From an uncultured Anaerolineaceae bacterium (lineage in GTDB: Bacteria > Chloroflexota > Anaerolineae > Aggregatilineales > Phototrophicaceae): 64,000 bases of DNA. Both the position numbers and the translations under genes were made by a program. Numbering within the stretch: position 1 is the stretch's first letter; each line of letters opens with the position of its first letter. The stretch is from positions 29,607 through 93,606 of the forward strand of contig CAYVVZ010000011.1 of assembly GCA_964455365.1 (NCBI GenBank), given 5' to 3'. The notes beneath the pieces were generated by a model. It worked only from the letters and a program-made list of their open reading frames with translations, was not told where the DNA came from and made no database searches. Of the stretch, positions 9,578-41,409 are shown piece after piece.

Positions 9578-9665
9578 CTTTTGAGAATACTACAGCTTGT
9601 CGAATAGGGCAATCTTTTTGCTTCTAAAAACAGGGTAAGCAGAAAGAATAAATCTAGTTGGTAGG

Positions 9666-10850: not shown

Positions 10851-10855
10851 TCTCC

Positions 10856-11464: not shown

Positions 11465-11496
11465 ACGAAGTTAATCCTTAAAACCCATTCAGAATA

Positions 11497-11530
11497 GAGT
11501 GTAAAAGAGATTCAACTCTCTTTTACACTC
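11497..11530. promoter_or_regulatory. perfect 13-bp-stem hairpin/palindrome upstream of the 202-aa membrane ORF
   Basis: gagtgtaaaagag attcaact ctcttttacactc lies 33-66 nt upstream of start codon 11464. No T-tract on either strand. Confidence 0.35.
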
Positions 11531-11777
11531 AGTAGAGTAGTTTTCCTCCTAAACAGCATATACTAAAGACGGGAGACTACCCTACGCTAGCCTAACGTGA
11601 ACTATGTGATGAATACATAACTAACTCTCTGCTTGAACAACAATTTGTGCAACACCTGACAATCATAGCCCTCTCATTTGCCACATCTCCGTTCGAAGGA
11701 TTATCATGGGTTAGAAACCGAACCTTGATTCACCCTGGCACTGTCGCCGGGGTGTGCTTTGATGGGAGCCAGTATCC

Positions 11778-12734
11778 ATGTTTGAGAATGTCGGTCAGGT
11801 GACAATTGGCCTGAGTGAACAGCAGTACATCGCCACAGAAGAAATCTCCACCGTGACCTTCCTCGCCCAGCAGTTGGGGAAACCCCTCCTGGCAGAAGGT
11901 CCCGCCGGGGTCGGCAAGACGGAACTCGCCAAAGCTTATGCACGCGCCACCGGAATGCCCTTCATCCGCCTGCAATGCTATGAAGGGCTGGATGAGAGCA
12001 AGGCGCTTTACGAATGGGAATACGCCAAGCAGATGCTCTACACGCAGCTTCTGCGCGACAAACTCAGCCAGATTCTTTCTGGCGCGGAAAGTCTCAGCGA
12101 AGCAGCGGATCGTTTGGGCGAAGAAGAAGATGTCTTCTTCAGCGAGCGCTTCCTGCTGGCGCGTCCGCTGCTGAAAACGGTCATGAGCGATGAGCGCGTC
12201 GTCCTCTTGATTGATGAAATTGACCGCGCCGATGCCGAGTTTGAAGCCTTCCTGCTGGAAATCCTCAGCGACTTTCAGGTATCCGTGCCGGAATTGGGGA
12301 CGATTGTCGCCAAGCATCGCCCCGTCGTCTTCCTCACCAGCAACAACACCCGCGAACTATCGGAAGCCCTCAAGCGCCGCTGCCTCTACCTCTTCGTGGA
12401 TTACCCGGATCATGACAGCGAATTGAACATCATTCGTATGCGTGTGCCGGAGATGAGCGAGAAGCTGGCATCGCAAGCGGTGGAAGTGGTGCAGAGCCTG
12501 CGCGGACTCGACCTGAAGAAAAATCCCAGTGTGAGTGAAACGCTGGATTGGGCGAAGGCGCTGGTGATGCTGAACGCCGATGCCATTGATGAAAGCACAC
12601 TGGAAAATACGCTGACGGTGCTGCTGAAGCATGAAAGCGATGTTCAGAAAGCACGCCGCGCCCTGCTGCGTAATCAACCCAATGACCTCGATCCCGGACG
12701 CAGCAGCGGTCGCTATGGTCGCGGTGCATGGTAA
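11778..12734 (+). CDS. MoxR-like AAA+ ATPase
   Basis: Walker A GPAGVGKT, Walker B VVLLIDEIDRA and the MoxR-type segment LQCYEGLDESKALYEWEY. 318 aa. Confidence 0.85.
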   Translation: MFENVGQVTIGLSEQQYIATEEISTVTFLAQQLGKPLLAEGPAGVGKTELAKAYARATGMPFIRLQCYEGLDESKALYEWEYAKQMLYTQLLRDKLSQILSGAESLSEAADRLGEEEDVFFSERFLLARPLLKTVMSDERVVLLIDEIDRADAEFEAFLLEILSDFQVSVPELGTIVAKHRPVVFLTSNNTRELSEALKRRCLYLFVDYPDHDSELNIIRMRVPEMSEKLASQAVEVVQSLRGLDLKKNPSVSETLDWAKALVMLNADAIDESTLENTLTVLLKHESDVQKARRALLRNQPNDLDPGRSSGRYGRGAW

Positions 12735-14013: not shown

Positions 14014-14170
14014 AGCCTCATCATATTGATATTTTTCGATTTGTCAAGGGATTCACTTTGGCTGCGTGCATTTCAGATTGTTGGCAAGTGACAACACTTC
14101 GGCCTACAGTGCCATATGCTGAAGCAACAAGAGCAGTGGGGATCACAGTGAAGGCGCTCTGACCTGCCGC

Positions 14171-14330
14171 ACACAGTCCCCTTTGGTGGACTTGTCAGTT
14201 TCTAGCTGGATGGCTTCAGCCGCCAGCGGCACGAAAAACAGCGCGATACGAATTTCTTTGTGTCCTTCGTGCCTTTGTGGTTCAAATCGTTTTGAAGCAA
14301 TTGGGAGCGCACACGGGACGCTCCCCTACT
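14171..14330 (+). repeat. 160-bp intergenic repeat, copy 1 of 2 (contains family-A core)
   Basis: Aligns end to end with 39218-39375 in the same orientation at about 90 percent identity by eye. Contains ttctttgtgtccttcgtgcctttgtggttcaaatcgttttg and the hairpin gggagcg...cgctccc. Confidence 0.85.
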
Positions 14331-16390: not shown

Positions 16391-16817
16391 CAGGGCAATC
16401 GCCTCAAATTTACCTGGGACTTGCAAGACAAGAAAATGATCAAAACGACGAACTCAACCGGGGATCAATGCACCAGACCGGGCGAAAACACGTTGATTTC
16501 GGACGATCCGGCGGATTATTGTCATCAGAAGAAAGAGTTATGGTTGTCGTTTTTGGCGTTTCCGGGCACGACATGTCGTGCCCCTACAGTCGGTGCGTAG
16601 TTTTTGTAGAGGCCGAACATATTCAGCCCGCGCCAATAAACCCATCCCTATTATCCCGCGTGGATCGACCCTACGCTTTTCTTCGTGTCCTTCGTGGTTC
16701 AAATCGTTTTGGTGCGATCAACCTGGTGAGCATACACGATGGCTTTTCAGAACTGACACTTTTGCTGTATTCTTCGTGTCCTTTGTGCCTTTGTGGTTCA
16801 ATTGGTTCTGGTGTGGA
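16391..16817 (+). repeat. composite mosaic repeat (modules C, B, A, A)
   Basis: C 16391-16528 matches 51869-52006. B includes the perfect 20-nt palindrome gggcacgacatgtcgtgccc at 16564-16583. A cores lie at 16677-16720 and 16769-16817. Confidence 0.8.
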
Positions 16818-16841
16818 TGCTCTGGTGTAGGAGGCGCAGGC

Positions 16842-26892: not shown

Positions 26893-27233
26893 ATGAGCAG
26901 GATGTATTGAGCCGCTTCCGCTCGGAAATTCCTGGAGAATTCGACGACGAAGAGGAAGAGCCTCTTTCGCTAGAAGAACTAGCAGAAGAAGAGGAAGAAG
27001 AATACGACGAAGACAGCGGCAATGAGTCGGTGGACGACGAATTTGAATTTGACGAAGAGGAGGAAGAGGAAATCGACCTGGATGATGACGACCTCTTCTT
27101 CGCGGATGATGAGGAAGAGGACGAAGACGGCATCATTGAAGATGAAGGGTACGATGAAGATGACGACGAGTTTGACATCGACCTGGATGACGATGATGAC
27201 GAAGGATTCGTTGATCTGTACGGCGATTCCTGA
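26889..27233 (+). CDS. extremely acidic low-complexity protein
   Basis: ATGA start/stop overlap with pdxT. 65 of 114 residues are D or E by hand count, and only two are basic. An intrinsic terminator follows. Confidence 0.6.
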   Translation: MNEQDVLSRFRSEIPGEFDDEEEEPLSLEELAEEEEEEYDEDSGNESVDDEFEFDEEEEEEIDLDDDDLFFADDEEEDEDGIIEDEGYDEDDDEFDIDLDDDDDEGFVDLYGDS

Positions 27234-27261
27234 GCATTTGCCTACAAATATCGCGCTCTAA

Positions 27262-27304
27262 ACCCCCGGTGAGCTACCATACTTCGTCGGGGGTTTTTGT
27301 TTTA
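27262..27304 (+). terminator. intrinsic terminator after the acidic ORF
   Basis: acccccg ... cgggggt stem followed by ttttgtttt. Confidence 0.6.
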
Positions 27305-27889
27305 TGCAAGGTGTAGTTGATACAGTCTGTAATATGCAGCATTGTCAGTGTTTACAGAACCACTTTTGTTGCTGAGTAGCTCGTTTGTACCAGGGTTCAC
27401 AGTCTCAATAGTTCGTACCTTGCTTTTGCTGCATACTGAAGAGAGAGACATCGGACTGGAACGAACCGGATGGTCTCTTATGGTCGCAAATATTTGGGGT
27501 TCAAGTGAGCGAGATAGCGCTGTTACGCGCAATGACTGCTGCGTTTGCATTCTTGGCATGCCCTGGAATGCCAATGTTCCGCCTGCCTCCTCATCGTTGC
27601 GTCAAGCATTTGCGGATTTCTTTATCGCATCTTTAACGTGTAGCGTGTAATTGTTCTTTGCGCAGCCTTTGCTTCAGGTATAGTATGGGCGAGTGGGTCT
27701 ACCGTGTTTGTACAAGATCGTGCCAAAAAATTAATTTCTGGTTGTTTTTTTGGCAAGATCTGGAAACTTTGCGTTTGAAATCAGGTTTTTCTGTTACAAT
27801 GCAGGGCGGGAATATGACAGATTGTTACAGCGCAGAGCATCGTTACTTGACCCAACACAGCCATGTGGCTTAATCAGATCGAGATTGTG

Positions 27890-30643
27890 ATGAGGACACT
27901 CTCAATGAAAGCGAAACCGCTCCTTTTCGTTGTCACCCTCAGTTTACTGCTGGGAGCCGTCGCCGGTTTTTCTGTTGCACAACAGAGCGAGATGCCTCTC
28001 GTCATCAATAGCGACGGCGAGGAAGGAATCAGCAATAGTGCGCTGGTGCTGGTGATTGACATCAGCAGCAGTATGAATACATCGGTTGTTTTCAGCAGCA
28101 CCATTGCCGCCGCACAAGATGTAATTACTGAAGTTGATGGGCAGATTCCCATCGCCATCGTCACGTTTGGCGACAGTGTTCAGGTGCTGCAAGAGTACAG
28201 CAGCGATACCGCAGAACTGACTGCCGCCCTCACCAATCTCTCCACCAGCGAAAGCGCCTTGCTCTATGATGGTGCGTTGGAAGGGGTGGAATTAGCCGCA
28301 TCGTTGAATGTAGAAAACACAGCCGTCATCCTTTTCACAGATAGCGCTGACCAGGCACGCAGCGCCAGCGGTCGCAGTCAGGCGATTCAGATTGCACGCG
28401 GCAGCAGCATCCCGGTCTATGCACTGGCGTTGGAATGGAATGGCAGCATCAATGCCGAGACAGATTATTTGCTGGATTTGACGCGGGCAGGCAGTGGCGA
28501 ACTCTATGAAGTCACCGTCGCCCAGGCTGAAAGCGGTGAAATCAGCCGCCTCTCGCTGGATGTCGTGGACGATTTGCTGTCTACGAACGTGATTACTCCC
28601 AACGATGAAGTGGGAACCATTGGTGCAATTGATCCGAGCACCGATACAGAACTGGTAACGACGGACGAAGAGGGAGAAATTGACCCCGACGTTAATTTCG
28701 GCATTGAAGAAACTCCTGCTCCTGAGAATGTCTTCGTGCCAGAGGGTTCGGATTTTGTGCTGCCCTTTGGTAATGTGCTGCCGATCAGCATCAATGTGGG
28801 GCAGTCACAAAACATCGTCCGTGCCGAATTGTCGATCAACCAGACCAAGCTAGAAACCTTCACCCAGGATGCAGATGAATACCTCTACGATCTTGATCTA
28901 GGCCGCTTGCGCCGTTCGGGGACGTACCGCCTGGTCTTCACCGCAACAACGGAAGACAACCTGCTCTTCGGTTCAGAATTTGAATTTGATGTCGTGATCC
29001 TCACGCCATCCGCCACAGAGACGGATGAAGAAACGGAAGAAGGCGAAGAGACGGCACAGAGCTTTGAACCCGTCGAAGAGAATACCGACCCCGAACTGCC
29101 ACGGCAGGTACTGCTGTTTGGAGCCAATGATGAATGGGTTCCGGTGGATCGCCTTGATCTGGTGCTGACGGACGAGCGAGGACTCGAACTTTCCGCAAAT
29201 CAGCAAGATGATCTTGAGTTGCGGACTCAGCAAGACTTACTCGCTATTCTGACCAGCCCAATCCGCTATTTGCCGCCGGAAGTCATTGAGATCTTCACGG
29301 CACAGCGCACTGGTTTCGTCACGGTGGTCATCATTGTCATGACGGCGATCTTGCTGCCACAGGGTTTGTTCACCGTTTACTGGATGACGTATACCTGGGT
29401 GGATGCTCGTCGCTTGCAGCGCAGTGAAACGCCGGATGAGTTTTACGAGCCGCATTATTCATTCACAGCGCTGCTGCCAGCGCGTCGTGAGGAGTCGGTG
29501 ATCTACGATACGATCATGGCAACTGCCAAGATTGATTACCCCGAAGACCTGAAAGAAGTGCTGGTTTTGATCCGTGATGAAGACGATGATGAAACCATCG
29601 CGGAGACGAAACGCGCCATTGATGATTTGCGCCGTGGCTTTGAAGACCGGGGCGAAGCATGGCCCAATAACGTCCATCTCATCACCTTCACCGATGGCCC
29701 GAAGAACAAGCCGAATGGCCTCAACCGTGGCTACAAGGCATCTACCAAAGATGTGATCTGCATCTTCGACGCGGAAGACTCGCCGCACCCGGAAATTTAC
29801 AACGTGATCAACACGGTGATGCTGCGTGACGATGCCGATGTGGTGCAATCCGGTGTGCAGTTGATGAACTTCAAAGAACCCTGGTTCAGTGCCTTCAACG
29901 TGCTGGAATACTTCTTCTGGTTCAAGAGCGGTTTGCACGCCTTCACGCATGAAATGCATGTGACCCCGCTGGGTGGCAATACGGTATTCTTCAAGAAGCA
30001 ATCAATGGACTTGCTCGCAGCGCAGGATACCGAAAAAGGCTATCGCGCCTGGGATGAAGGGCTGCTGACGGAAGATGCCGATGTGGGCTTCCGCCTGACT
30101 TCCCTTGGGATGAAGATCACGATTGTGTACGGTTCGCGCCAGGCGACGCAGGAAGAAACCCCGCACAATGTCGAGCAATTCATCAAGCAGCGTACCCGCT
30201 GGTGCCAGGGCTTCTACGAAATCTTCGTCAAAGGGGACTGGACACGGCTGCCAACTGCGCGTCAGCGAATCGCGTCGATTTACATTTTGCTGAATTCGCT
30301 GCTGCAAGCATCCGTACTGCTCTTCTTGCCCATCGGTGTCTTCATCTTGCTGACGCAGTCTGTATCAGTGCCGATTGCGCTGCTATCGTGGATACCAGTG
30401 TACTTGCTATTCATCCAGATGATTATCAACCTGATCGGTATTCGAGAGTTCACGGAAGCCTATGGGCTGAAGCTGCCCTTCCTCTTCCGACTGCGCATGA
30501 TCGTGTATTACTACCCGTACCAGATTCTGCTGGCAGCCGGGGCCATGCGTGCAATCGTTCGTTTCCTGACGAACCAGTCGGCATGGGAAAAGACTGCACA
30601 CTCGAACCTACATCGTAAATCCGCAGCAGGAGGACACGCATAA
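27890..30643 (+). CDS. VWA-domain / processive family-2 glycosyltransferase fusion protein
   Basis: Signal peptide MKAKPLLFVVTLSLLLGAVAGFSVAQ. MIDAS VLVIDISSSMN. Acidic linker, then a TM (FVTVVIIVMTAILLPQG). GT2 motifs IFDAEDSP, LTEDADVGFRL and IKQRTRWCQG, then C-terminal TM helices. Confidence 0.8.
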   Translation: MRTLSMKAKPLLFVVTLSLLLGAVAGFSVAQQSEMPLVINSDGEEGISNSALVLVIDISSSMNTSVVFSSTIAAAQDVITEVDGQIPIAIVTFGDSVQVLQEYSSDTAELTAALTNLSTSESALLYDGALEGVELAASLNVENTAVILFTDSADQARSASGRSQAIQIARGSSIPVYALALEWNGSINAETDYLLDLTRAGSGELYEVTVAQAESGEISRLSLDVVDDLLSTNVITPNDEVGTIGAIDPSTDTELVTTDEEGEIDPDVNFGIEETPAPENVFVPEGSDFVLPFGNVLPISINVGQSQNIVRAELSINQTKLETFTQDADEYLYDLDLGRLRRSGTYRLVFTATTEDNLLFGSEFEFDVVILTPSATETDEETEEGEETAQSFEPVEENTDPELPRQVLLFGANDEWVPVDRLDLVLTDERGLELSANQQDDLELRTQQDLLAILTSPIRYLPPEVIEIFTAQRTGFVTVVIIVMTAILLPQGLFTVYWMTYTWVDARRLQRSETPDEFYEPHYSFTALLPARREESVIYDTIMATAKIDYPEDLKEVLVLIRDEDDDETIAETKRAIDDLRRGFEDRGEAWPNNVHLITFTDGPKNKPNGLNRGYKASTKDVICIFDAEDSPHPEIYNVINTVMLRDDADVVQSGVQLMNFKEPWFSAFNVLEYFFWFKSGLHAFTHEMHVTPLGGNTVFFKKQSMDLLAAQDTEKGYRAWDEGLLTEDADVGFRLTSLGMKITIVYGSRQATQEETPHNVEQFIKQRTRWCQGFYEIFVKGDWTRLPTARQRIASIYILLNSLLQASVLLFLPIGVFILLTQSVSVPIALLSWIPVYLLFIQMIINLIGIREFTEAYGLKLPFLFRLRMIVYYYPYQILLAAGAMRAIVRFLTNQSAWEKTAHSNLHRKSAAGGHA

Positions 30644-32338
30644 ATGGCTAGCGTGACGAAGAACGACGAGCATGCTGCACCCAGCGAAGATGCGGGGCAG
30701 CAAGTCATCGGGCGCTTCAGCATATTCTTGCTGATTATCGTCCTGTTAATCGCCGGGGTGACGCACTACGAGGGGATGATGCGCTTCCCCAGTTACCAGG
30801 ATGCGGAAGGGGAAAATATCGCCAATGCCTGGGCGATGCTCAACACGGGCGATCTGACCCCCTATACGTATGCCTATGAAGAAGCGCCGACCAATACCTT
30901 CGTACTCGCAGGCTGGACATCGCTGCTTGGTGGTTTCGACCAGTTTGGCTTCCCGCTGAATACCGGGCGTGTCTTGATGCTGATCTTCCACCTGCTGAGT
31001 GTGGCGCTGGTGTTCAGCACGACGAAGAAAGTCTCTGATAACGACCTGGCGGCAGTGATTGCAGCGCTGCTATTCGCACTCTCTCCGCTGGCACTTTCGA
31101 TTCAGCGGCGTGTGCTGGCGGATAACGTGATGCTGTTCTTCCTGCTCTCGTCGTTTTACCTGATCGTCGGCAAAGAACCGAACCTGTACAGTTATATGGC
31201 GAGTGCGATTTTCTTCGGGACAGCCGTCCTCACCAAAACAACAGCCTTCATCTTTTTGCCGGGGTTCCTCTATATCGTCAACATGACCGCACACCCGCAC
31301 TTGCGCCGTTTTGCGGTCAACCTCTGGATGACGTTCAGCATCTTCTTAATATCGCTGTTTCCGTTATATGCCCAGATGCGACAAGAGTTATTCCCGGAAG
31401 GCTGGCTGCTAGGCGGCGACTTCCCGCATGTGAGCCTGGTGGAGCGTATTCTGGATCGCGGCCCCGATACGGGTGTCTTCCTGAATATCGGCAGCGGTAT
31501 TGCGCCAGCATTCCGCGAATGGACGGATCTACAGAATATCACGGCTGACCCGGTTTTGATTTATGGTGGGGCAATCGCTGTGATTTTCCTGGCGGTGATG
31601 GCGGGGGATAACAAGCACTTACGTCCGGTTGCGGTGGCGGCGGTGGTCTTTGCCATCGGAGCCTTCCTCGCAGGGCGCATTGTGATCTCGGATATTATCT
31701 CGCTGCTGCCCTTCTTTGCGATGGCGTTAGGCATTGTGGTGGCAGTGGCGGCGAATCTCGTCAGCGGAATCGGGAGTTCCTTCCTGAAACCTGTCATCAT
31801 GGGTGGGGCGGTGATGGTGCTGCTCTACCCATTCTGGATTTTCTACAGCGCCCGCATTGAATTGTATACGCTCGACCAGGTGCAAGATCAGGTTGATGCA
31901 GTGCAGTGGGTGCAGGATCGCGTGCCGGAAGATGCCTTCATCATCACGGATGCTTACGCTTTTGTGGCGCTGCGCGAGAATGGTTACCCGAATGCACATC
32001 ATTACTGGAAGGTCGATACTGATCCTGATGTGAAGTTCACCTTGCTGCGCGATGACCACTGCGAGATTGATTACATCATCACCACGCCCCAGGTCATTGG
32101 TGATATTGACCTGTACCAGTTGGATCTGGTGCGGCGTGCGCTTGTCAACTCGCGTGTGTTGCAGACTTACGAGAACAATGGCTGGACGGTTGAAATTCGC
32201 CAGGTGACGCGCACGAACTGCGATGTCCGCGAAGAAATCCCGACCGAAGATGCATCCACGACAGCCGGGGATGGTGCGAGTACCACCGACTCGCAGTCTT
32301 CCAGTGAGTCTGCGCCACTCTCCCTGGATGGAGAGTAA
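30644..32338 (+). CDS. GT-C fold (GT39/ArnT/PMT-like) membrane glycosyltransferase
   Basis: The ATG immediately follows the TAA of the upstream gene. First-loop acidic motif YQDAEGENIANAW, about 11 TM helices, and a soluble C-terminal domain. Confidence 0.68.
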   Translation: MASVTKNDEHAAPSEDAGQQVIGRFSIFLLIIVLLIAGVTHYEGMMRFPSYQDAEGENIANAWAMLNTGDLTPYTYAYEEAPTNTFVLAGWTSLLGGFDQFGFPLNTGRVLMLIFHLLSVALVFSTTKKVSDNDLAAVIAALLFALSPLALSIQRRVLADNVMLFFLLSSFYLIVGKEPNLYSYMASAIFFGTAVLTKTTAFIFLPGFLYIVNMTAHPHLRRFAVNLWMTFSIFLISLFPLYAQMRQELFPEGWLLGGDFPHVSLVERILDRGPDTGVFLNIGSGIAPAFREWTDLQNITADPVLIYGGAIAVIFLAVMAGDNKHLRPVAVAAVVFAIGAFLAGRIVISDIISLLPFFAMALGIVVAVAANLVSGIGSSFLKPVIMGGAVMVLLYPFWIFYSARIELYTLDQVQDQVDAVQWVQDRVPEDAFIITDAYAFVALRENGYPNAHHYWKVDTDPDVKFTLLRDDHCEIDYIITTPQVIGDIDLYQLDLVRRALVNSRVLQTYENNGWTVEIRQVTRTNCDVREEIPTEDASTTAGDGASTTDSQSSSESAPLSLDGE

Positions 32339-32384
32339 GACCAACGTGCGCAAGGGTGGGGTTTTTCCCTGCCCTTCTGAAACT

Positions 32385-32549
32385 GGTTCTACCAGAATTG
32401 GTGGAAATTCACTGAGTTCTCTTTTATGACCTTGCCTCACCCCTTCCAGGCCTCCAATCTTCCCTCCTCTCTCCAAATTGGAGAGGGGAAAACGAGCAAA
32501 GCGAGTAGGGGTGAGGTGAATTTCACCAAAAACGTTAGAACGAGAAACA
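32385..32549 (-). repeat. right (uninterrupted) copy of the inverted hairpin element
   Basis: Both arms are contiguous. Internally, cctcacccc pairs with ggggtgagg and ctctcc aaatt ggagag forms the apex. Confidence 0.85.
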
Positions 32550-32795
32550 AGCTAATGGGACGATTGTACCGTGATCTGCAAAAAGATTAATTTTTCCCTC
32601 GATCTACCAACTAGAATCCTGACGTATGGTTACTATAGTGGATGATGTCGCTAGCGGAGAATTCCTTTTTCGAGCGTGGTTCGCGCCCCGCACGCACATT
32701 GAGTAGGGGAGCGTCACCCAAAACAACCCTCGCGGCATCGTCTGAAGTTTGCCATTTCGAAGAAACGTGAACACTGTACAGGGAGAATGTGAAGA

Positions 32796-34046
32796 ATGCG
32801 TCAGATGTTTATTCGCCGACTGATGATTGTGCTGCTGTTTCTGGTGAGCAGCATTGGCTTCGTTGCAACAGCACAAGATTCTGGAACACGTCCTTTCCGT
32901 TCTGTGGGATATTACCTCTACTACAACGTATATGGGGATGGCATCCCACAATATACAGTTCACAATATCCCTGCCCAATTCCTCACCCACCTGATTTACG
33001 CCTACATCAACATCAGCGACAACGGGCAGTGCGTCTCGACGGATGAATGGGCAGATACCGGCTATCGCTATGAAGGGGATGGCGAAAACGAACGCCTGCG
33101 CGGGAACTTCAAGCAGTTGCAGATTCTCGATGCACGGCAGCAAGCCGACCTGACGATTATGATGTCCATTGGCGGCTGGGAAAATTCGCCCAACTTCCCG
33201 ATTGTGGCAGCCGATGAACGCTCCCGCGAGCGTTTCGTCACATCTTGTATAGCCTTCATGCAGCAGTACCGCTTCGAAGGCATTGATATTCACTGGCGTT
33301 ACCCGGTCAGTGGTGGCATGGAAGACGGCAGCGAAGCCGACCGCGAGAACTACAATTTGCTGCTGGAAGAATTCCGCCGCCAGCTTGATGAAGCAGGCAT
33401 CGAAGATGAACGCTACTATGAGCTATCCATCGGCATTCCCGGCACGCCGGATTTGCTGGAAAACTACGACATGCCGGAGATCATCCGCTATGTTGATTTC
33501 ATCAACATGCACTCCTACCAATACGCAGGCTCCTGGAGTGGCATCACCGAACATATCTCACCGCTGTTCATGAGCGCCTCTGACCCACGTTCACCGGAGA
33601 CGCAGCCGGAATATACCATTGATGGCGCAGTGAATGAATTGTTCGATCAAGGGGTACCACCGGATAAGATCGTGGTGGGTGTGCCGTTCTTCGGGCAAAG
33701 CTGGGCGCGGGTGAACGATAATAACTTCTTCGGCATGTTCTCCGATCATGGCGGTGTACCGAGCCAGACACGCGGCAACGGTCAATTGTTTTACCGTGAT
33801 ATTGTGGGCTTCATGTTCAACGATACATGGACGAGTTACTTCGACCCGGAAGCCCGCGTTCCCTGGCTGTGGGATGCAAACGGGCGCATCGCCATCACCT
33901 ACGAAAGCCCTGAGTCAATTCGGGCGAAGGGTGCCTATGTGGTCAACAACCGCATGGGCGGGATGCTCGGCTGGCAACTAGCCTTCGACGATGCCGATCA
34001 TTCGCTGTTGAGTACGATGTATATCACCCTCAACGGGCAGCCGTAA
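32796..34046 (+). CDS. secreted GH18-fold chitinase-like protein lacking the catalytic motif
   Basis: Signal peptide MRQMFIRRLMIVLLFLVSSIGFVATAQ. GH18 landmarks MMSIGGWENS and GGMLGWQLAFDD. The DxxDxDxE position reads FEGIDIHWRYP, and the MxYD position reads MHSYQY. Confidence 0.78.
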   Translation: MRQMFIRRLMIVLLFLVSSIGFVATAQDSGTRPFRSVGYYLYYNVYGDGIPQYTVHNIPAQFLTHLIYAYINISDNGQCVSTDEWADTGYRYEGDGENERLRGNFKQLQILDARQQADLTIMMSIGGWENSPNFPIVAADERSRERFVTSCIAFMQQYRFEGIDIHWRYPVSGGMEDGSEADRENYNLLLEEFRRQLDEAGIEDERYYELSIGIPGTPDLLENYDMPEIIRYVDFINMHSYQYAGSWSGITEHISPLFMSASDPRSPETQPEYTIDGAVNELFDQGVPPDKIVVGVPFFGQSWARVNDNNFFGMFSDHGGVPSQTRGNGQLFYRDIVGFMFNDTWTSYFDPEARVPWLWDANGRIAITYESPESIRAKGAYVVNNRMGGMLGWQLAFDDADHSLLSTMYITLNGQP

Positions 34047-34112
34047 CCACAGAACGCTGTAACTACCATAGGGGTGCAATGTCTTGCATCCCTACAGGAA
34101 ATTGTGCTGGTT

Positions 34113-34958
34113 TTATTTCCGCCCCACGAATGTCACCAACCGTCCCGGCGTGTTGTCGCGGGATGTGACTATCTGCGCCAGCCGATGCAGCACAGCATCC
34201 CCCCAGGGCGTACCCGGCATAGCGACGACCTTCGCCAGCGGTGTGCTGATCCGACGAGCCAGCGGACGCAGGATGCGCTTCCGGCGCTGTGCTTCTGTCG
34301 TCGGGAAATAATTCATCACACTTTCCCAATGCCCCAGAACATGTTCCAATTTCAACCCGGCAGATTCAATTGCATCCGTGTATTCCTGTAGCAAAAAAGC
34401 ATGTTCCCCACCATAGCGATGATGCAGCGGGTGCTTCGCCAGGAACTTCGGCAAATCTTCCGGCTTGCTGATGATGTGTTCCCGCGTGGCGAGCATCACC
34501 CCACCGGGCTTGAGGACGCGCTGCATCTCCCGGCAGATCTGCGGCAAATCGTGCGCGTGGTGCAGCACCTGCCGCGCATACACCAGATCAAACGAGGCAT
34601 CCGGGAAGGGCAGTGCTTCGCCAAATTCTTCTACTACCTGGATGGATAACCCGGCATCCTGGGCAAGCTGGCGAATGGCTCCCGCGCCAACCAGCGAACT
34701 TGGGTCAGGTTCCAGGGAAGTTACCTGCCAGCCGCCTTTCGCCAGCGCATAGGACGCAATGCCGCGCCCTGCCCCCACATCGAGGGCTGTTCCCGGCTGT
34801 GGTAGATAGCGCTGTGTTTCCCGCCATTCCGCACTGGCGGCAAAGCGCTGCGCAGATTCCAGCAGGGGATCATCAAAGTAAGCATCCCGCACCAGGGCAG
34901 CTTGTTCCGGTTGTTCGCGCAGCCAGCGGACGGCATCTTCCCAGGTGTTAGCGCTCAT
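34113..34958 (-). CDS. class I SAM-dependent methyltransferase
   Basis: Motif I ALDVGAGRGIAS and post-I/II segments (DLVYARQVLHH, LKPGGVMLA). Overlaps the upstream gene by 11 nt. Confidence 0.8.
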   Translation of the reverse strand: MSANTWEDAVRWLREQPEQAALVRDAYFDDPLLESAQRFAASAEWRETQRYLPQPGTALDVGAGRGIASYALAKGGWQVTSLEPDPSSLVGAGAIRQLAQDAGLSIQVVEEFGEALPFPDASFDLVYARQVLHHAHDLPQICREMQRVLKPGGVMLATREHIISKPEDLPKFLAKHPLHHRYGGEHAFLLQEYTDAIESAGLKLEHVLGHWESVMNYFPTTEAQRRKRILRPLARRISTPLAKVVAMPGTPWGDAVLHRLAQIVTSRDNTPGRLVTFVGRK

Positions 34959-35559
34959 CTTCGCTCAATTCCTTGATTACGCGGGCGGGGTTTCCGGCAG
35001 CAATCGTCCAATCCGGCACATCCTTCGTCACCACCGAACCCGCGCCAATGATGGCACCTTCGCCGATGGTCACGCCTTTGAGGATGATGACGCTGGTTCC
35101 GATCCATGCGCCCTTCTTGATATGCACCGGAGCTTGCGGAGTCAGCGACCAATCCGCACGCCCACCCTGTTTCCATTCTGCGAGATCATGTTTGCGGATG
35201 CTGTAGCGGATATTGTGATTATCACTATCCGAGATGATGCAGCGGTAGGAGATCAGCACATCGTCTTCTACGGTGATTTGCCCCACGCAATCCAGAATAG
35301 TTTCACCACCGACATATACATTGTTACCGATGATGATCTGGCTGTGATCTGCTTCTGTCACCAGCGCCCCTTCGATCAAACAATCGTCACCAATGGTGAT
35401 GCGGCTTTGCTCCGTGCGCTTGTTCAGCCGGGTGCGGAGTGTGGTATTGCGCCCAATTTGCACACCGGGGAGCGTGATTGGTTCCGGCTTTTTCGGCGTG
35501 AAGGCACGGCTGAGAATCGGCGGCGTGAGCAAATAGAGAATGCGTTTCAGGCTGGGCAT
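34948..35559 (-). CDS. hexapeptide-repeat (LbH) O-acetyltransferase, maltose/NodL/WbbJ-like
   Basis: Repeating [LIV]G-x4 hexapeptides (IGNNVYVGGETIL ... IGTSVIILKGVTIGEGAIIGAGSVV). Confidence 0.82.
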   Translation of the reverse strand: MPSLKRILYLLTPPILSRAFTPKKPEPITLPGVQIGRNTTLRTRLNKRTEQSRITIGDDCLIEGALVTEADHSQIIIGNNVYVGGETILDCVGQITVEDDVLISYRCIISDSDNHNIRYSIRKHDLAEWKQGGRADWSLTPQAPVHIKKGAWIGTSVIILKGVTIGEGAIIGAGSVVTKDVPDWTIAAGNPARVIKELSEDER

Positions 35560-35565
35560 GGTTCC

Positions 35566-36348
35566 TCATCTGGCACTTTGTACAACTTGTTCCCAGGCAC
35601 GGATTAACTCGTATTCCGGTTCCATGAGTTCACGCAGGGCAGCAAGTTCTGCCTCCGTTGGGTGGTAGGTGTGCTGGCTCTTGCGCGAATGGCGATATTG
35701 CAGCGTGATATTCAGATCGCGGTTTAATTGTTGCACGCCATCTTCTAACGTCTCTGTGAATACCACCTGATTGCAGGCTTGCAACCCTGCCAGCCCTTCT
35801 TGAACGTCGAAGGTTGGCGAGAACATATACAGTTGGAAGAAGCGATGCTCTGGCGGCATCTGCTGCACTGTCGCCAGCAAATCTGCGCCAAGCCACTGCT
35901 TTTCAACTTCAAATGAAGGATGCGGATTAGACGACGCTTGATGATCCAGCAGCATTCGATAATGCGAAATCACCCGCTTCACCGGGTCACGCAAGCAGGT
36001 GAAGGTATAGGTGTGCGGTGGCAATGTCAATTCATGCGCAGGGATGTGAGAGAAGGCGTAAAAATAACGTCCTTCTTCGATCAAGCGTTGTTTCCACCCG
36101 ACATAGATTTTCCCGTTGTGTACAAGACGCTGATGCTTCTCTCCCATGCGTTGATACAGGGCTTTGCCATCTTCGCCAGCAAGCCCCAGGAACATATGGT
36201 TCAGGCTGGTTCCGCCCGTTTTGCGGATGTGGTAGAAGTAGATGCGCCGATAGCCACCGGGGAAGCGATAGCGCTGGAGCAATGCAGAATGCCACGCATA
36301 CCGAGTTCGGTAAAATGCGGAAGTCCGCAGACGCTGTAGCAAATTCAT
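35566..36348 (-). CDS. PAPS-type carbohydrate sulfotransferase-like protein
   Basis: 5'-PSB-like YHIRKTGGTS and 3'-PB-like LRDPVKRVISHY. Start set at ATG 36348, which forms an ATGA overlap with the upstream stop. Confidence 0.68.
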   Translation of the reverse strand: MNLLQRLRTSAFYRTRYAWHSALLQRYRFPGGYRRIYFYHIRKTGGTSLNHMFLGLAGEDGKALYQRMGEKHQRLVHNGKIYVGWKQRLIEEGRYFYAFSHIPAHELTLPPHTYTFTCLRDPVKRVISHYRMLLDHQASSNPHPSFEVEKQWLGADLLATVQQMPPEHRFFQLYMFSPTFDVQEGLAGLQACNQVVFTETLEDGVQQLNRDLNITLQYRHSRKSQHTYHPTEAELAALRELMEPEYELIRAWEQVVQSAR

Positions 36349-37283
36349 TTCAGATGCAGCTCCCTTCTCATGCGTTGGCGTAAGCGGCGCAGTGTTTGCT
36401 GCCAGAGGGTCGGTTTCGCAGGCGCAACATGACGGGCGATGTACTGGCAATATCGCCTGAAGATAGCGTCATTCACCTGCTCAGGAAAGTCCAACGGCTG
36501 GGGCAGTTGTGCATCAAAAACTTTATGCTGCTGCCAGTTCGACTGTTTTTTGCCATGCGTGCCGCTGCCATCGAAGCCTTCATTGGCGATCATCGACTGC
36601 CGCGAATAGACGACCAGCCCGCCCCGCCGCCAGATGCTGAACCACCAGCGAATCCCCCAGGAATCATTTTTCCCGGCAGCAGCGCGGCGGTACATCTCGG
36701 TATAGGGATAGGCTCCATTCAAATCGAAGGCGTGGCTGTTCTGTGGATTTTCCAGGATGCGCAAGGCTTCCGATGGTTCATGCTCGTACTGATCCCAGGC
36801 GCGTTTCCAGGTTGCCCATCCCCAGGTCGTCGCAACAGGGATCAAGAAAATCCCCGGCTGCGGATTATCCTCAAAGGCGAAGGTATAGCCCGAAACCTGA
36901 TAGACGCGCTCATCCGTTGCGTAATGATCCAGCGCGGAGAGCATATATTCCAGGAAAGCCGGAGCCAGCACCAGGTCATCTTCCAGCACAATCACACGCC
37001 CATACTGCTCACAGAGTTCCGTCACGCCTGTGACGATGGACTTTGCCAGCCCATAATTTTCTTCGCGCAGGATGATTTCCGCACCGTGTTCTGCTGCCCA
37101 TGCCTGCACAATCTCGCGGGTTGCCTGCACCGAGTCAGCATGTTCGGGCTTTTTGGGTGCATCGCAGTAAATCACCAGCGCACATTCATCTACACGGCGG
37201 CAGGCGGCAAGGCTCGCCAGCAAGCGCTGTGTATGCTGCGGACGGTTATAAGTGAAGATGGCAATGGGTGTCTGGGGCATCAT
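36345..37283 (-). CDS. GT-A glycosyltransferase, GnT-I (GT13)-like
   Basis: IAIFTYNRPQHTQRLL N-terminus and LEDDLVLAPAFLEYM, which resembles the EDDLEVAPDFFEY motif of GlcNAc-transferase I. Confidence 0.65.
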   Translation of the reverse strand: MMPQTPIAIFTYNRPQHTQRLLASLAACRRVDECALVIYCDAPKKPEHADSVQATREIVQAWAAEHGAEIILREENYGLAKSIVTGVTELCEQYGRVIVLEDDLVLAPAFLEYMLSALDHYATDERVYQVSGYTFAFEDNPQPGIFLIPVATTWGWATWKRAWDQYEHEPSEALRILENPQNSHAFDLNGAYPYTEMYRRAAAGKNDSWGIRWWFSIWRRGGLVVYSRQSMIANEGFDGSGTHGKKQSNWQQHKVFDAQLPQPLDFPEQVNDAIFRRYCQYIARHVAPAKPTLWQQTLRRLRQRMRRELHLK

Positions 37284-37367
37284 TCAAACCAGCAAAAGAG
37301 GCGATGAGTCGCGCAAGACACGATACATCGCCCCGGAAAGCGCGTCAATTGTAGAGTTGGCGGCGGA

Positions 37368-38147
37368 TCAGCCTTCGGTGACGCAGATCAGCGTTAGCGT
37401 AACCGGATCACTCTGATTGCCTGCTTCATCTTCCACGATCAATTGCATTTCCAGCGTCCGGGTTCCGTCCACCGCATCACAGCGGAATGTCACCGGAATC
37501 GTTGTACCCACAACGGATTGGCTGAAGAAACCATCTACCAGCGTCCAGCCTGTTTCGTCGCTGGCTTCCACGATGCTCCACAAGAAACGCGAGGCATCGC
37601 CATCTTCGTCCGTGTATTCAATTTCGGTTGTAGCAGTTCCTTCACCCACAATGACGATGCGGCTGGGCGTGACGGAAACCACCTCTGGCGCAGTGCCTGC
37701 TGTTGCGCCGCCACCCTGTCCCAGGTCTGCAAAGCTGGACTGGCATTGCAGATCAAAGAAGGCGGATTCGCTGCGATTGCCCTGGGCATCTTCCACGATG
37801 AGTTCAATGGATACCATTGCATCCACATTATCACAGCGGAAAGTTACCGGAATCGTTGTACCTACAATGGACTGATTGAAAAAGCCATCCGGCAGATTCC
37901 AGGAGGTATCTTCCCCCGCTTCAAATACTTCCCAGATGAAGCGGACTGCGTCTCCATCTTCATCAGCAAATTCAACGTCAACCGTAGCGCTGCCGCCACC
38001 TGTGATGGTGACCGCATTGGGCGTGAGCGAGACAATCTCCGGCGCAGTCCCGGCATCGGTTTCTGTATCGGTTTCTTCGTCCTGGGCAGCCAGGGGCAGG
38101 GCGAATAAGAAAAACACACAAAGGGACAAAAACAAACGTCGTTTCAT
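37368..38147 (-). CDS. secreted protein with two tandem ~105-aa repeats
   Basis: Signal peptide MKRRLFLSLCVFFLFALPLAAQ. TAPEIVSLTPN...FDLQCQ aligns with TAPEVVSVTPS...LTLICV, with conserved DEDGDA.RF.W, GTTIPVTFRCD and LIVED..GN.S. Confidence 0.65.
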   Translation of the reverse strand: MKRRLFLSLCVFFLFALPLAAQDEETDTETDAGTAPEIVSLTPNAVTITGGGSATVDVEFADEDGDAVRFIWEVFEAGEDTSWNLPDGFFNQSIVGTTIPVTFRCDNVDAMVSIELIVEDAQGNRSESAFFDLQCQSSFADLGQGGGATAGTAPEVVSVTPSRIVIVGEGTATTEIEYTDEDGDASRFLWSIVEASDETGWTLVDGFFSQSVVGTTIPVTFRCDAVDGTRTLEMQLIVEDEAGNQSDPVTLTLICVTEG

Positions 38148-38747
38148 CACACACTCCATTTCGGGTGGTAGGGGAATGAATGCTTGATTTGATTGTACCG
38201 CATGCCTTGCGCTGTGCAATTTAGGCCAAGAAATGAAGAAGGATTACGCCCGATTCACTATGCTCGTAATCCACTTTGGGCGTAGTTCGGGCATGCTGGA
38301 AATCCGACACATTTTTCTGCATGTGTGTTGACTTATCTTGAAAAAAGTCTGTCGCCAATGGGGGAACTATTTGGTGTATGAATACCCGTTACAGTCGAAA
38401 GCTGGCGACAGACTTGTGTATAGTTGCAGAATTGTTGGGATATATGCTATGACTGTCTGCGAGTCATACCTGGAATACCGGGCGATGGGGCAGGTTGTAT
38501 GCATTCTTATGGCGATAAGTTCCTGTGCTGGCACAATGGTCATTGATGAAGCTGGCGGCGACTGACTGGATAGCTTCCACGGCTAGCGATAGGCACTCGC
38601 TGTACCCAAACCGAAGCAGTAAGCGTGTTATGATTTTGTCAAGAGATTGCGTACTTCGGCCTATGGTCTCCGATATTCGTGATAGCATGTATCCATCTAC
38701 CTTAACAATTGATGTGTGCAGCCCTGTATTGACAGGAGCGATCCGAT

Positions 38748-39074
38748 ATGCAGCTGCCGAACCTGCCTCAATTCACGGAACATGCTGAACTGCGAATGAT
38801 CCAGCGCAATTTCACCAAAGACGATGTGTACTACATCCTGGAACAGGGAGTTGCGACACACAGCGCAGGCGTAATTTTTTGCCAGTTGAGAGAGAAAAAT
38901 TTGCCGAGAGAGGATCGTTCGGACGAGCGGAAGCGCAAATTAAGCGGGAGCGAAGTGGTACTAAGCCCCTGCAAACAATGGATTTTGACGGTATACCACG
39001 CACGAGATTTCAAAAAATCACGGCGGAAATCCAAACACAATTACCGCAAAGGCGGGTATCGCCCCCGTTGTTAA
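38748..39074 (+). CDS. DUF4258-like protein (toxin-like fold family)
   Basis: FTEHAELRMIQRNFTKDDVYYILEQG matches the H-A-x-x-R-M-x-x-R-x-I opening of DUF4258. Basic C-terminal tail. Confidence 0.55.
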   Translation: MQLPNLPQFTEHAELRMIQRNFTKDDVYYILEQGVATHSAGVIFCQLREKNLPREDRSDERKRKLSGSEVVLSPCKQWILTVYHARDFKKSRRKSKHNYRKGGYRPRC

Positions 39075-39217
39075 TGTGCATCCTATTTTTTAGCTAACCC
39101 GCTCTACACTTAACCTGACCACTAATTGGTTGCGCACAGCATTGTTGAGCCTTGTTTGAAAGCGGTTTTCCATCAATAGCCCGGAAAGCCGCTTTTTTTG
39201 CGTTATGATAGACGTAC

Positions 39218-39375
39218 ACACAGTCCCCTGTGGTGGACTTGTCGGTTTCTAGCGGGCTGGCTTCAGCCGCCAGCAGCACGAGAAACAGCGCGATGCGAAT
39301 TTCTTTGTGTCCTTCGTGTCTTTGTGGTTCAAATCGTTTTGAAGCAATTGGGAGCGCACACGGGCGCTCCCCTAC
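39218..39375 (+). repeat. 160-bp intergenic repeat, copy 2 of 2
   Basis: See 14171-14330. Same orientation. Confidence 0.85.
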
Positions 39376-40224: not shown

Positions 40225-41409
40225 CTACGTATCGGTGCTGACTTCATCCCAGGGCAATTCTTTGTACCCCGTCAACCAGTTCAGCGCGTAATGTCGTTCG
40301 TAGATGACAGGCAGCAGCATATTGCGCGGCGGCTTCTTGCCGAACAACTCTGCATCCACCAATGCCCAGTGATAGCGGTAATACAAATCGGTCATGTCGA
40401 GGAGTTCGGTTGCATGCCGCAAGTTGGCATCTAGCAAGAACTGCTCTGCCGAGCGAGAATCAATGACCTCATAGGCGCGTTCCGGCGGCGCAAAATTATT
40501 GGGGAAATTCAGGCGATCCACAAAGCCCAACGCCCACAACAACAGCCAACAACTTTCCAGGCGCTGGCTGAACTTAATGACGATGTATTCCGGCGGCTCG
40601 TCATCTTCGGCAAATTCCCATTCGTCCTCTGTCACTACGTCTTGCAGCTCGTACTGCTGTACTTTTTGCTGGAACCAATCATAAGACTGCCCTTCCGCAC
40701 GGCGCGAAATCAAGCTGAGGACGATGGCGCGTTGGGCAGCTTCTTCAGTGCTGCGCAAGGTAACCAGGCTCTCATCCGGTATCACGGGCAAATGGGGAAT
40801 GAAGGGAATCTCTTCGTGCTTTAGCTGCTTGATGCTGCGTTTCTTGCGCTCAATCGCGGGGCCTGTTTCCAGGTCAACCTTTGGCTGCTGCCAATACTTC
40901 AGCTTGCTATCCGCCGGGCCAATTTCAATATTGCCGTTCTCGTTGTAGATCACGCCGTTGGCGACCATCAGCGCATAATCATAAGACTCCATAATGCCCT
41001 GTACGAGATGCTGTGCCTTGCGGTCTTCGTCCCAATCCGGCGTGATGGTGCAATCCAGAATTTTAATCATGCGCTCGGCACGACGCAGGATTTTCTTCGC
41101 CTTTTTGTCGTGGCGGTCAGCCAACCAATCCTCGACTTGCTCCCAGATGTCATCGATTCGGCTCACCAGCACATCCACCGGCGGCACGCGAATTGCCACC
41201 TGAACATCATCCCAGGTGACATCATAACCAACGATCTCGCTGCCATCGCGCACAACCCGGACATTCTCTTTGCCCGTCAATTCATAGAGGTCTTCCAGTG
41301 AAACCATGTCATCATCTGGCGCGAGAATCGCAATTGTATCTACCATGTACCTAACTTTCTGCTCTCCCAAATCAACCGCTAGCATAGCGGAACGAACACG
41401 CCGGAACAA
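40225..41409 (-). CDS. hypothetical protein with DUF4272-like C-terminal domain
   Basis: C-terminal LLWALGFV ... YYRYHWALVDA ... ERHYALNWL ... WDEVSTDT resembles DUF4272. N-terminal half unassigned. An alternative start lies at 41346. Confidence 0.55.
   Translation of the reverse strand: MFRRVRSAMLAVDLGEQKVRYMVDTIAILAPDDDMVSLEDLYELTGKENVRVVRDGSEIVGYDVTWDDVQVAIRVPPVDVLVSRIDDIWEQVEDWLADRHDKKAKKILRRAERMIKILDCTITPDWDEDRKAQHLVQGIMESYDYALMVANGVIYNENGNIEIGPADSKLKYWQQPKVDLETGPAIERKKRSIKQLKHEEIPFIPHLPVIPDESLVTLRSTEEAAQRAIVLSLISRRAEGQSYDWFQQKVQQYELQDVVTEDEWEFAEDDEPPEYIVIKFSQRLESCWLLLWALGFVDRLNFPNNFAPPERAYEVIDSRSAEQFLLDANLRHATELLDMTDLYYRYHWALVDAELFGKKPPRNMLLPVIYERHYALNWLTGYKELPWDEVSTDT

Follow-up and report, generated by a model that had tools for sequence, protein, structure and literature searches.

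A putative envelope-glycan synthase module with a GT-C partner and a GH18-fold pseudoenzyme in an uncultured Anaerolineaceae bacterium

The 64,000 nt of DNA analysed in the current study (the window; contig CAYVVZ010000011.1 of assembly GCA_964455365.1, nt 29,607–93,606 of the forward strand) derive from an uncultured Anaerolineaceae bacterium of the Chloroflexota. They carry two convergent groups of genes, referred to here as units 1 and 2. Unit 1 (nt 27863–34046, + strand) is probably a synthase-dependent module for an envelope glycan, and encodes a membrane family 2 glycosyltransferase (GT2) fused to an ectodomain, a PMT-like membrane glycosyltransferase of the GT-C type, and a secreted protein with the fold of glycoside hydrolase family 18 (GH18). 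Judged from gene order in relatives, these three genes are a real, co-conserved module of Anaerolineae-type Chloroflexota. Their domain content, motifs, fold and synteny, together with the loss of GH18 catalytic residues throughout a clade, are supported directly by the data below. Unit 2 (nt 34113–38147, − strand) is a five-gene cassette of tailoring enzymes which, on the same kind of evidence, is conserved as a unit of its own.

The synthase, GT-C and GH18-like genes

Genes of the region were checked by Pfam, NCBIfam and PDB searches, hydropathy, open reading frame (ORF) calls and direct reading of the junctions. All eight ORFs listed in an earlier annotation made from the letters alone (the sequence-only reading) are present at or near the positions assigned to them, the longest ORF for the synthase beginning at nt 27863 and not 27890, and the domain calls made for the proteins of the region were all confirmed by Pfam. 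The features of unit 1 are as follows, with the basis of each in brackets.

27863..30643, + strand: ectodomain-fused membrane GT2 synthase, 926 aa (Pfam, hydropathy, orthologue alignment, AlphaFold model)
29768..29779, + strand: DAED (DxD-type) motif of the synthase, aa 636–639 (orthologue and family alignments)
30068..30082, + strand: TEDAD motif, aa 736–740, catalytic base region (alignments; pairs with TEDA of E. coli BcsA)
30188..30202, + strand: QRTRW (QxxRW) motif, aa 776–780, interface helix (alignments; pairs with QRIRW of BcsA; model helix 317–337)
30644..32338, + strand: PMT-like GT-C membrane glycosyltransferase, 564 aa (Pfam, hydropathy, junction, adjacency to GT2)
30800..30808, + strand: D53-A-E55 acidic motif in the first extracytoplasmic loop of the GT-C (alignment of GT-C partners; DEG in most relatives)
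32796..34046, + strand: secreted GH18-fold putative pseudo-chitinase, 416 aa, of the Glu→Arg clade (Pfam 264 bits, ChiW alignment, clade analysis, synteny)
33285..33299, + strand: DIHWR, aa 164–168, at the site of the catalytic DxDWE (alignment to ChiW, clade alignment)

Trio contexts were drawn from five members of the GH18 clade described below, three loci from a genome scan, and the window, nearly all being metagenome-assembled genomes. The trio was found in nine independent Anaerolineae-type loci (the window and those numbered L001, L002/3, L004, L006, L007/8, L010, L011 and L025), across which the GH18-like proteins are 46–78% identical. Wherever there is enough flanking sequence the order and strand are the same, i.e. 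ectodomain-GT2, PMT_2-type GT-C, and GH18 with the Arg substitution. The ectodomain of the synthase varies, being VWA in the window, L001, L004, L006, L009 and L025, LysM in L007 and L010, and SH3_3 in L002/3 and L011. After it, a Big_7-like Ig domain was detected in L010, L011 and L025, and the same position is conserved in an alignment of six orthologues. The GH18-like gene occurs in those examined loci in which the GT2 bears a VWA, LysM or SH3 ectodomain; L012, L013 and L016 have neither the ectodomain nor the GH18 gene. Neither the trio loci nor the window region gave a GtrA-type gene call.

At the synthase/GT-C junction the TAA stop codon is followed directly by ATG (nt 30641–30646), as had been claimed, with AGGAGG upstream. 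The GT-C and GH18-like genes are separated by 457 nt (nt 32339–32795), far more than the spacing of about 60–290 nt in orthologous loci. By eye, a GC-rich hairpin-like sequence and then a T run lie in this gap right after the GT-C stop codon, and since the gap is also long, the GH18-like gene may have its own promoter here. A promoter and terminator scan of nt 27200–38800 gave signals no better than those of shuffled sequences. The Rfam scan of the window returned no matches, and hence no riboswitch upstream of the synthase.

Within the synthase, Pfam finds VWA at aa 61–194 and Glyco_tranf_2_3/Glyco_trans_2_3 at aa 534–851; PilZ is not matched. The overall layout is a signal or anchor sequence (aa 15–40), the VWA domain, an Ig-like region (about aa 300–380), a transmembrane (TM) helix (about aa 474–508), the GT-A domain (aa 534–851) and three C-terminal TM helices. 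In the metal-ion-dependent adhesion site of the VWA domain DxSxS is present and Thr is replaced by Ala, as read from the orthologue alignment. The processive-synthase signature DAED, TEDAD and QRTRW, already recognised in the sequence-only reading, shows no variation across the six orthologues. Among 27 aligned members of the GT2 family the F-D-x-E-D motif is invariant (its Ala in at least 90%), and the set D, DxD, TED, QxxRW is invariant in both alignments. Judged from BcsA, QxxRW contacts a sugar acceptor. TED motifs are typical of BcsA and PgaC and EDR motifs of NodC and chitin synthases, and the window GT2 has the TED type, not EDR.

In an AlphaFold model of synthase residues 454–926 (mean confidence, pLDDT, 88.6) a single TM helix precedes the GT-A domain, which is followed by the interface helix with QRTRW and three long helices. 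The top Foldseek matches of this model were hyaluronan synthases (HAS) and BcsA (7e-14 to 3e-13, TM-score 0.58–0.62), with PcManGT and plant CesA also high, and neither GtrB nor DPMS structures were within the top 50. PcManGT is an enzyme with a minimal cellulose-synthase-like fold which acts in N-glycan assembly. By PDB profile search the clear solved relatives were only BcsA (3e-11) and PcManGT (1e-6), chitin synthases being not significant (E 0.15); as a single-sequence phmmer query, the full-length GT2 matched nothing in the PDB. The window protein also had no Chitin_synth match in Pfam at E ≤ 0.01, and its NCBIfam scores were all far under the curated cut-offs (XrtP-associated glycosyltransferase, 64.7 bits; PgaC/IcaA, TIGR03937, 44.1 vs 422; CelA, TIGR03030, 39.8 vs 699). 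The fold match, the sub-cut-off scores and the scarcity of clear solved relatives therefore point to a distinct family of BcsA/HAS-fold enzymes, the sugar specificity of which cannot be read from these data.

A search with the catalytic half of the GT2 gave 3521 matches at E ≤ 1e-10 among the scored candidates, the best of them 45–69% identical. Some GT2 relatives carry the JGI labels 'cellulose synthase/PNAG synthase-like' or 'XagB', the latter being a database label only. Certain synthase relatives have an N-terminal FHA domain (loci among L013, nt 8918–11296, L016, nt 8543–11254, and L049, nt 9770–11812), and L016 has in addition a second GT2 domain; another shows a weak C-terminal GAF match (E 8.6e-4, under the Pfam cut-off), and the GT-C relatives P0373 and P0383 begin with DUF4388. 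This variety suggests lineage-specific control, for example by Ser/Thr phosphorylation.

The GT-C protein matches PMT_2 (38.9 bits, cut-off 26.1) and PMT (37.5 bits, cut-off 22.7) and has at least 10 hydrophobic segments by hydropathy; a search of its profile against the PDB returned no matches. Its loop-1 motif reads QDAEG in the window, the Glu being invariant in GT-C partners (79/79) and directly preceded by Asp in 66 of the 79. This conserved acidic motif, together with a C-terminal extracytoplasmic domain common to the whole family, argues that the GT-C is an active enzyme, which may use a polyprenyl-phosphate-linked donor.

In a survey of the GT2, one genome per species was scanned and 585 relatives were recovered, the loci of the best 80 being studied. 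These 80 come from Anaerolineae, Chloroflexia, Ktedonobacteria, Thermomicrobiales, Rubrobacter, Dactylosporangium, several Streptomyces and many Patescibacteria. A homologue of the window GT-C lies directly downstream on the same strand in 74 of them, and as four of the remaining six are on contigs that end early, the pair is present in 74 of 76 informative loci (Chloroflexota, Actinomycetota, Patescibacteria). In 30 of the 80 loci the GT-C is 865–1200 aa long, and those tested are fusions of PMT_2 with a C-terminal GH8 domain (Pfam E about 1e-50). The GT-C family itself comprises 337 representative clusters at E ≤ 1e-30 (1.84 billion representative proteins searched). Half of its best 150 relatives are at least 800 aa long, and the long forms tested (P0298, P0340, P0359) are all GT-C::GH8 fusions, one with an extra LysM. 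No GT2::GT-C fusions were found among GT-C relatives with long N-terminal extensions, these extensions being DUF4388 or having no family match. A free-standing GH8 gene, with or without CBM3, adjoins the trio in L001, L002/3 and L006, and a gene for a CBM3-bearing GH5 cellulase comes after the GT2/GT-C pair in Ktedonospora; L004 and L007 have the GH18-like gene and no GH8 nearby. From this distribution the GT2/GT-C pair is far older than the trio, being an ancient core widespread in monoderm phyla and Patescibacteria.

The GH18-like protein has a single N-terminal hydrophobic, signal-like segment, and its Pfam match (Glyco_hydro_18) and similarity to chitinase ChiW (E 1e-98) identify a GH18 TIM barrel. 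It had been described from sequence as catalytically dead, and a proper alignment does not restore the Glu: phmmer places FEGIDIHWRYP onto LDGIDLDWEYP of ChiW (5gzu), i.e. DIHWR on DLDWE. Arg168 stands for the catalytic Glu, His166 for Asp, and Gln242 for the Asp of the YD motif (YD→YQ). The PDB matches include Chitinase-3-like protein 1 (2esc, 6e-37) and a 'signal processing protein' (1owq, 8e-38). Homologues with DxDWR number 38, from 41% identity upward, and form one monophyletic clade in a neighbour-joining tree, while 17 more distant GH18 homologues retain DWE. The Glu-type sister of the Arg clade is P0039, the gene neighbourhood of which is truncated by the end of its contig. Within the clade, Glu→Arg is found in 38/38 and the YD Asp is likewise gone in 38/38 (replaced by Gly, Ser, Ala or Gln). 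Retained are the Trp of SxGGW (38/38), W247 (38/38), a C-terminal Trp (31/38) and most of DxxDxD. The concerted and fully conserved substitutions therefore indicate a remodelling of the −1 subsite, not decay. Neither of two Glu-type relatives examined adjoins a GT2/GT-C pair, and one sits in a ROK/PIG-L/ABC transporter/GH3/SIS locus typical of chitooligosaccharide use. The Arg clade looks like a bacterial case of a GH18-fold pseudoenzyme recruited to a biosynthetic operon; we know of no GH18 protein with Arg at the acid/base position that is catalytic.

The tailoring cassette of unit 2

The genes of unit 2, listed here in order of coordinate and numbered in the direction of transcription, are:

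34113..34958, − strand: class I S-adenosylmethionine-dependent methyltransferase, cassette gene 5 (Pfam, NCBIfam; 11-nt overlap onto gene 4)
34948..35559, − strand: hexapeptide O-acetyltransferase of LacA/Maa/WbbJ type, cassette gene 4 (Pfam, NCBIfam)
35566..36348, − strand: sulfotransferase (Sulfotransfer_2) of the type using 3'-phosphoadenosine-5'-phosphosulfate, cassette gene 3 (Pfam; ATGA-coupled to gene 2)
36345..37283, − strand: soluble GT-A glycosyltransferase, GT13 (GnT-I/POMGnT1)-like, cassette gene 2 (Pfam, PDB match)
37368..38147, − strand: secreted protein with two 105-aa Ig-like repeats, cassette gene 1 (ORF, hydropathy, repeat comparison)

Pfam assigns the four enzymes to a class I methyltransferase, a hexapeptide acetyltransferase, Sulfotransfer_2, and a GT-A protein with a weak GNT-I match, the best PDB match of which is POMGnT1 (GT13; E 1.6e-4). 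The methyltransferase hits only the generic families Methyltransf_11/25/12/23/31, with no match to NodS (PF05401), and the sulfotransferase translation contains IRKTGGTS and RDPVKRVISHY. None of the four has an N-terminal hydrophobic segment, and all are soluble by hydropathy. The first gene of the cassette has a single signal-like hydrophobic segment of this kind, and its two repeats, of about 105 aa, are 58% identical. The close junctions noted in the sequence-only reading are all as claimed: an ATGA overlap between the GT-A and sulfotransferase genes (nt 36345–36348), a 6-nt spacer, GGAACC, between sulfotransferase and acetyltransferase (nt 35560–35565), and an 11-nt overlap, ATGAGCGCTAA, between acetyltransferase and methyltransferase (nt 34948–34958). 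From these junctions the sulfotransferase therefore starts at the ATG at nt 36348 and not at an upstream TTG.

Comparison with relatives separates the cassette from the trio in both directions. The closest relative of the trio, L004 (76% nucleotide identity), has an aminotransferase and a cytochrome P460 gene after its GH18 gene, and no cassette. Conversely, locus L089 retains all five cassette genes, that for the two-repeat protein included (82% nucleotide identity), and its ATGA, 6-nt and 11-nt junctions are identical to those of the window, but the flanks differ on both sides: Robl_LC7 and Pmp3 genes lie upstream, and the last 76 nt hold the end of a convergent ORF that, by eye, is unlike the GH18 C-terminus. 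Hidden Markov models (HMMs) of the five cassette proteins, built from few sequences, found no homologue (E < 1e-5) in 88 other loci with GT2 and/or GH18 genes. Since co-conservation fails in L004, in L089 and across the 88 loci, the operon would not be part of the GT2/GT-C/GH18 module. The proposal of a single co-conserved system thus stands for the trio, in its nine loci, and falls for the tailoring operon, and with it goes the idea that a Nod-like operon decorates the product of the synthase, the two being unlinked in relatives. The suggestion that the two-repeat protein belongs with the tailoring genes is borne out by L089, and the view that this is no canonical nod cluster agrees with the lack of NodA/NodB-type domains among the genes of the region.

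Distant relatives of the sulfotransferase (43–50% identity) lie in heteropolysaccharide clusters with Wzm/Wzt or Wzx, several GT4/GT2 genes and second sulfotransferases. At E ≤ 1e-5 there are 311 homologues, among which Desulfobulbus, Phycisphaeraceae, Gammaproteobacteria, Cyanobacteriota and Anaerolineales were named, and two contexts examined (among the set L089, L090 and L092) are within Wzx- or ABC-type polysaccharide clusters. Bacterial sulfated polysaccharides have so far been reported only from cyanobacteria according to a 2026 paper (PMC13390465); the spread of the sulfotransferase and its cluster contexts suggest that sulfated glycans occur well beyond that group.

Proposed mechanism and rival explanations

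In the envelope-glycan module that unit 1 probably represents, the membrane-embedded BcsA/HAS-fold GT2 would build up a beta-linked glycan, with a cytoplasmic UDP-sugar as donor, and thread the growing polymer across the membrane. Its N-terminal ectodomain (VWA, or LysM or SH3 in orthologues) would lie outside the cell and tether the machine to wall or matrix. The translationally coupled, PMT-like GT-C would act at the outer face, where its most likely tasks are to decorate the chain or to attach it, lipid-primed, to an acceptor by transfer or anchoring; this role is the weakest link of the model, and transfer of a lipid-primed chain en bloc to an acceptor is an attractive conjecture. Because it has lost the acid/base Glu and the YD Asp and kept the sugar-stacking Trp residues, the secreted GH18-fold protein would serve as a lectin, chaperone or organiser that binds the product or the wall and does not cleave it. 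Unit 2 would be an independent cassette working in the cytoplasm on another glycoconjugate, and would lie beside unit 1 by chance. Processivity, topology, the part played by the GT-C, lectin function and polymer chemistry are what we infer.

Several features recall cellulose synthase operons (BcsA plus the GH8 endoglucanase BcsZ): a membrane GT2 with D, DxD, TED and QxxRW, BcsA as the best profile match among solved structures and a top structural match, and GH8 as a recurrent accessory in relatives of the window module. Unlike those operons, the window module is without BcsB, PilZ and a cyclic di-GMP module, its GT2 has 1+3 TM helices in the model where BcsA has 8, and it has a PMT-like GT-C partner which is often fused to GH8 in relatives, with no GH8 in the window. 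A compact synthase with few TM helices resembles class I hyaluronan synthases (HAS being the top Foldseek match, 7e-14), chitin synthases and NodC, and ligands containing N-acetylglucosamine (GlcNAc) are hinted at by the fold of the GH18-like protein and by the LysM domains of orthologous synthases. NodC and chitin synthases differ from the window GT2 in having EDR and not TED, the chitin synthase profile gives only E 0.15, and NodA/NodB genes are absent.

GH8, GH5 and CBM3 all act on or bind beta-1,4 polymers, and their genes in relatives, fused or adjacent, lend indirect support to a processive synthesis coupled to export of the chain. The frequent fusion of GH8 to the GT-C, parallel to BcsA/BcsZ, argues for a beta-1,4-linked polymer, and by this analogy the chain is most likely beta-1,4. 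(Listeria PssZ, considered as a further GH8 parallel, was dropped as papers place it in GH126.) The polymer may be glucan-like or N-acetylhexosamine-like. Hints of GlcNAc come from the GH18 fold, from its retained DxxDxD and from the LysM domains of orthologous synthases; hints of glucan come from the GH8, GH5 and CBM3 accessories of relatives and the affinity of the GT2 to BcsA. As to a grouping of the GT2 with synthases of non-GlcNAc polymers, the profile match is 3e-11 for BcsA vs 0.15 for chitin synthase, with all NCBIfam families remaining below cut-off. A broader proposal, which is tentative and rather unlikely to be right as a whole, is that GT2 plus GT-C, often with GH8 fused to the latter, is a so far undescribed, very widespread envelope-glycan machine of monoderms and Patescibacteria, in which the synthase extrudes a lipid-primed beta-1,4 glycan and the GT-C ligates it en bloc to an acceptor in the wall or at the surface, the Anaerolineae having added wall-binding ectodomains and the Arg-type pseudo-chitinase. 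Such a synthase-plus-ligase route may be likened to synthase-dependent O-antigen plus WaaL.

A number of points weigh against the model given for units 1 and 2. Neither the GT2 and GT-C families nor the Arg-type GH18 clade yielded a characterised member, so that every functional step is a deduction, and all characterised GT2/GT-C gene pairs known to us use a polyprenyl-phosphate monosaccharide and not a polymer synthase. Nor are QxxRW and a BcsA-like fold proof of processivity, as PcManGT, an enzyme of N-glycan assembly, ranks high too. The 64-kb window has no GH8 gene, and the 457-nt gap between the GT-C and GH18-like genes counts against assuming their co-transcription in this genome. The adjacency of the cassette could still mean a local functional link here, and single-sequence HMMs could overlook very divergent tailoring genes in other loci.

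The GT2 and GT-C could instead be a lipid-carrier pair. The product of the GT2 would then be a polyprenyl-phosphate sugar, or a short oligosaccharide linked to lipid, which the GT-C passes on outside the cell to a protein or a wall polymer; no free polymer would be formed, and the GH18-like protein would bind the decorated target. We regard this as unlikely, though it is the main rival. GtrB/GtrA/GT-C, CsbB-YfhO, ArnC-ArnT and Dpm1-PMT likewise pair a GT2 gene with a GT-C having the PMT-type acidic loop-1 motif, which is invariant here, and PcManGT is among the best structural matches of the GT2. The tight coupling and near-universal adjacency of the two genes also fit the logic of multi-component transmembrane glycosylation by GT2 plus GT-C, for which a general scheme has been published (PMC13390465). 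Against it, the window GT2 has the BcsA/HAS fold and is not of the GtrB/DPMS type, these lying outside the top 50 matches; the trio loci lack a GtrA-type flippase; the GT-C partners are often fused to GH8, which with the neighbouring CBM3 and GH5 implies a polymeric beta-1,4 substrate outside the cell; and QxxRW, invariant in the GT2, is, judging from BcsA, an acceptor-contacting motif. Two further alternatives concern the other genes. That all eight or nine genes form a single pathway, with a chitooligosaccharide or chitin-like chain from the GT2, Nod-factor-like sulfation, acetylation and methylation, and the dead GH18 as lectin, is highly improbable. Sulfation, acetylation and methylation are the chemistries of NodH, NodL and NodS, here found in one tight operon adjacent to the trio, with an acetyltransferase of the same hexapeptide LacA/Maa-type family and four soluble enzymes that could act on a cytoplasmic oligomer as Nod enzymes do; on speculation, the Arg in the GH18 could suit a sulfated ligand. 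However, trio and cassette are not co-conserved in either direction, the Arg substitution is ancient and occurs in nine trio loci without the cassette nearby, the relatives of the sulfotransferase are in Wzx- or ABC-type clusters, and the cassette differs from Nod tailoring in having its own GT13-like GT-A and secreted repeat protein. The methyltransferase without a NodS-family match, the absence of NodABC, and a GT2 with TED not EDR and no Chitin_synth match also stand against such a pathway. It is equally improbable that the GH18-like protein is, in place of a lectin for the product, an inhibitor or regulator of a glycanase, like XIP-I (a plant GH18-fold protein inhibiting xylanases), or an enzyme with an altered active site, for example a transglycosylase or an enzyme for anionic glycans. 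In favour of this, the changes at two catalytic positions are concerted, each conserved in 38/38 with no random decay, and the gene often neighbours GH8; but the window, L004 and L007 have it without a nearby GH8, glycan binding would be expected from the kept sugar-stacking Trp and from DxxDxD, most of which is kept too, and an Arg-type catalytic GH18 is, to our knowledge, without example. The closest parallels are chitinase-like lectins and pseudoenzymes (YKL-40/CHI3L1, XIP-I, narbonin), which share the GH18 barrel, a replaced Glu and kept aromatic binding residues; the window protein differs from these in being bacterial, secreted and tied genetically to a synthase operon, and in that Glu→Arg with YD→YG/S/A/Q defines a monophyletic Chloroflexota clade.

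Other features of the window, and significance

Three more GT-C-type genes are present in the window, the set spanning nt 16578–19550 (+), 54483–56105 (+) and 59040–63149 (+). One product is a YfhO protein of 990 aa, another is a second PMT_2 protein, and the remaining one, of 1369 aa, joins a YfhO-like region to a Wzx-type flippase (Polysacc_synt/MatE). Beside the fusion is a small GT2 gene (nt 63180–63911, −) that could encode a polyprenyl-phosphate-sugar synthase. On this gene content, the genome appears to invest heavily in glycosylation at the outer face.

An intergenic repeat of 160 nt occurs twice (nt 14170–14329 and 39217–39375, +), the copies being 94% identical and having one 30-mer exactly in common, where chance would give 0. 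A related stretch of about 50 nt lies just upstream of the cassette homologue in L089 (nt 1149–1200). Folding gives hairpins at several places in the repeat (z about −2.0 to −2.4), which matches no Rfam family. It may be a small RNA, or else a regulatory or small mobile element. Between nt 8000 and 12000 the G+C content falls to 0.41–0.46, vs about 0.55 elsewhere. This stretch holds an undecaprenyl-diphosphate synthase gene (nt 8672–9502), an ORF without a Pfam match (nt 9666–10442) and a further ORF (nt 10856–11464), and may have been horizontally acquired. Beyond the cassette are genes for a DUF4258 protein (nt 38748–39074, +) and a DUF4272 protein (nt 40225–41409, −), which are not linked to the findings on trio or cassette.

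The sequence-only reading had offered the system as undescribed, and no published description of the trio module was found; nor did a search of the literature turn up the pairing of a BcsA/HAS-type GT2 with a GT-C, the fusion of GT-C to GH8, or a GH18 clade of the Arg type. Among the well-studied synthase-dependent systems (cellulose, poly-N-acetylglucosamine, hyaluronan, chitin) we know of none with a GT-C partner, so that a familiar type of synthase would here have acquired a novel companion. The GH18 clade with Glu-to-Arg, which is monophyletic, represents what seems to be a rare bacterial pseudoenzyme, and a simple protein to express. The cassette, for its part, suggests that sulfated glycoconjugates are possible in Chloroflexota. 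The GT2/GT-C pair, which has cultured carriers in Ktedonospora formicarum SOSP1-1, Dactylosporangium aurantiacum NRRL B-8018, Streptomyces iranensis DSM 41954 and S. sparsogenes ATCC 25498, may be an important and so far overlooked way of making envelope or matrix glycans across Chloroflexota, Actinomycetota and the Candidate Phyla Radiation, the surfaces of which are poorly understood.

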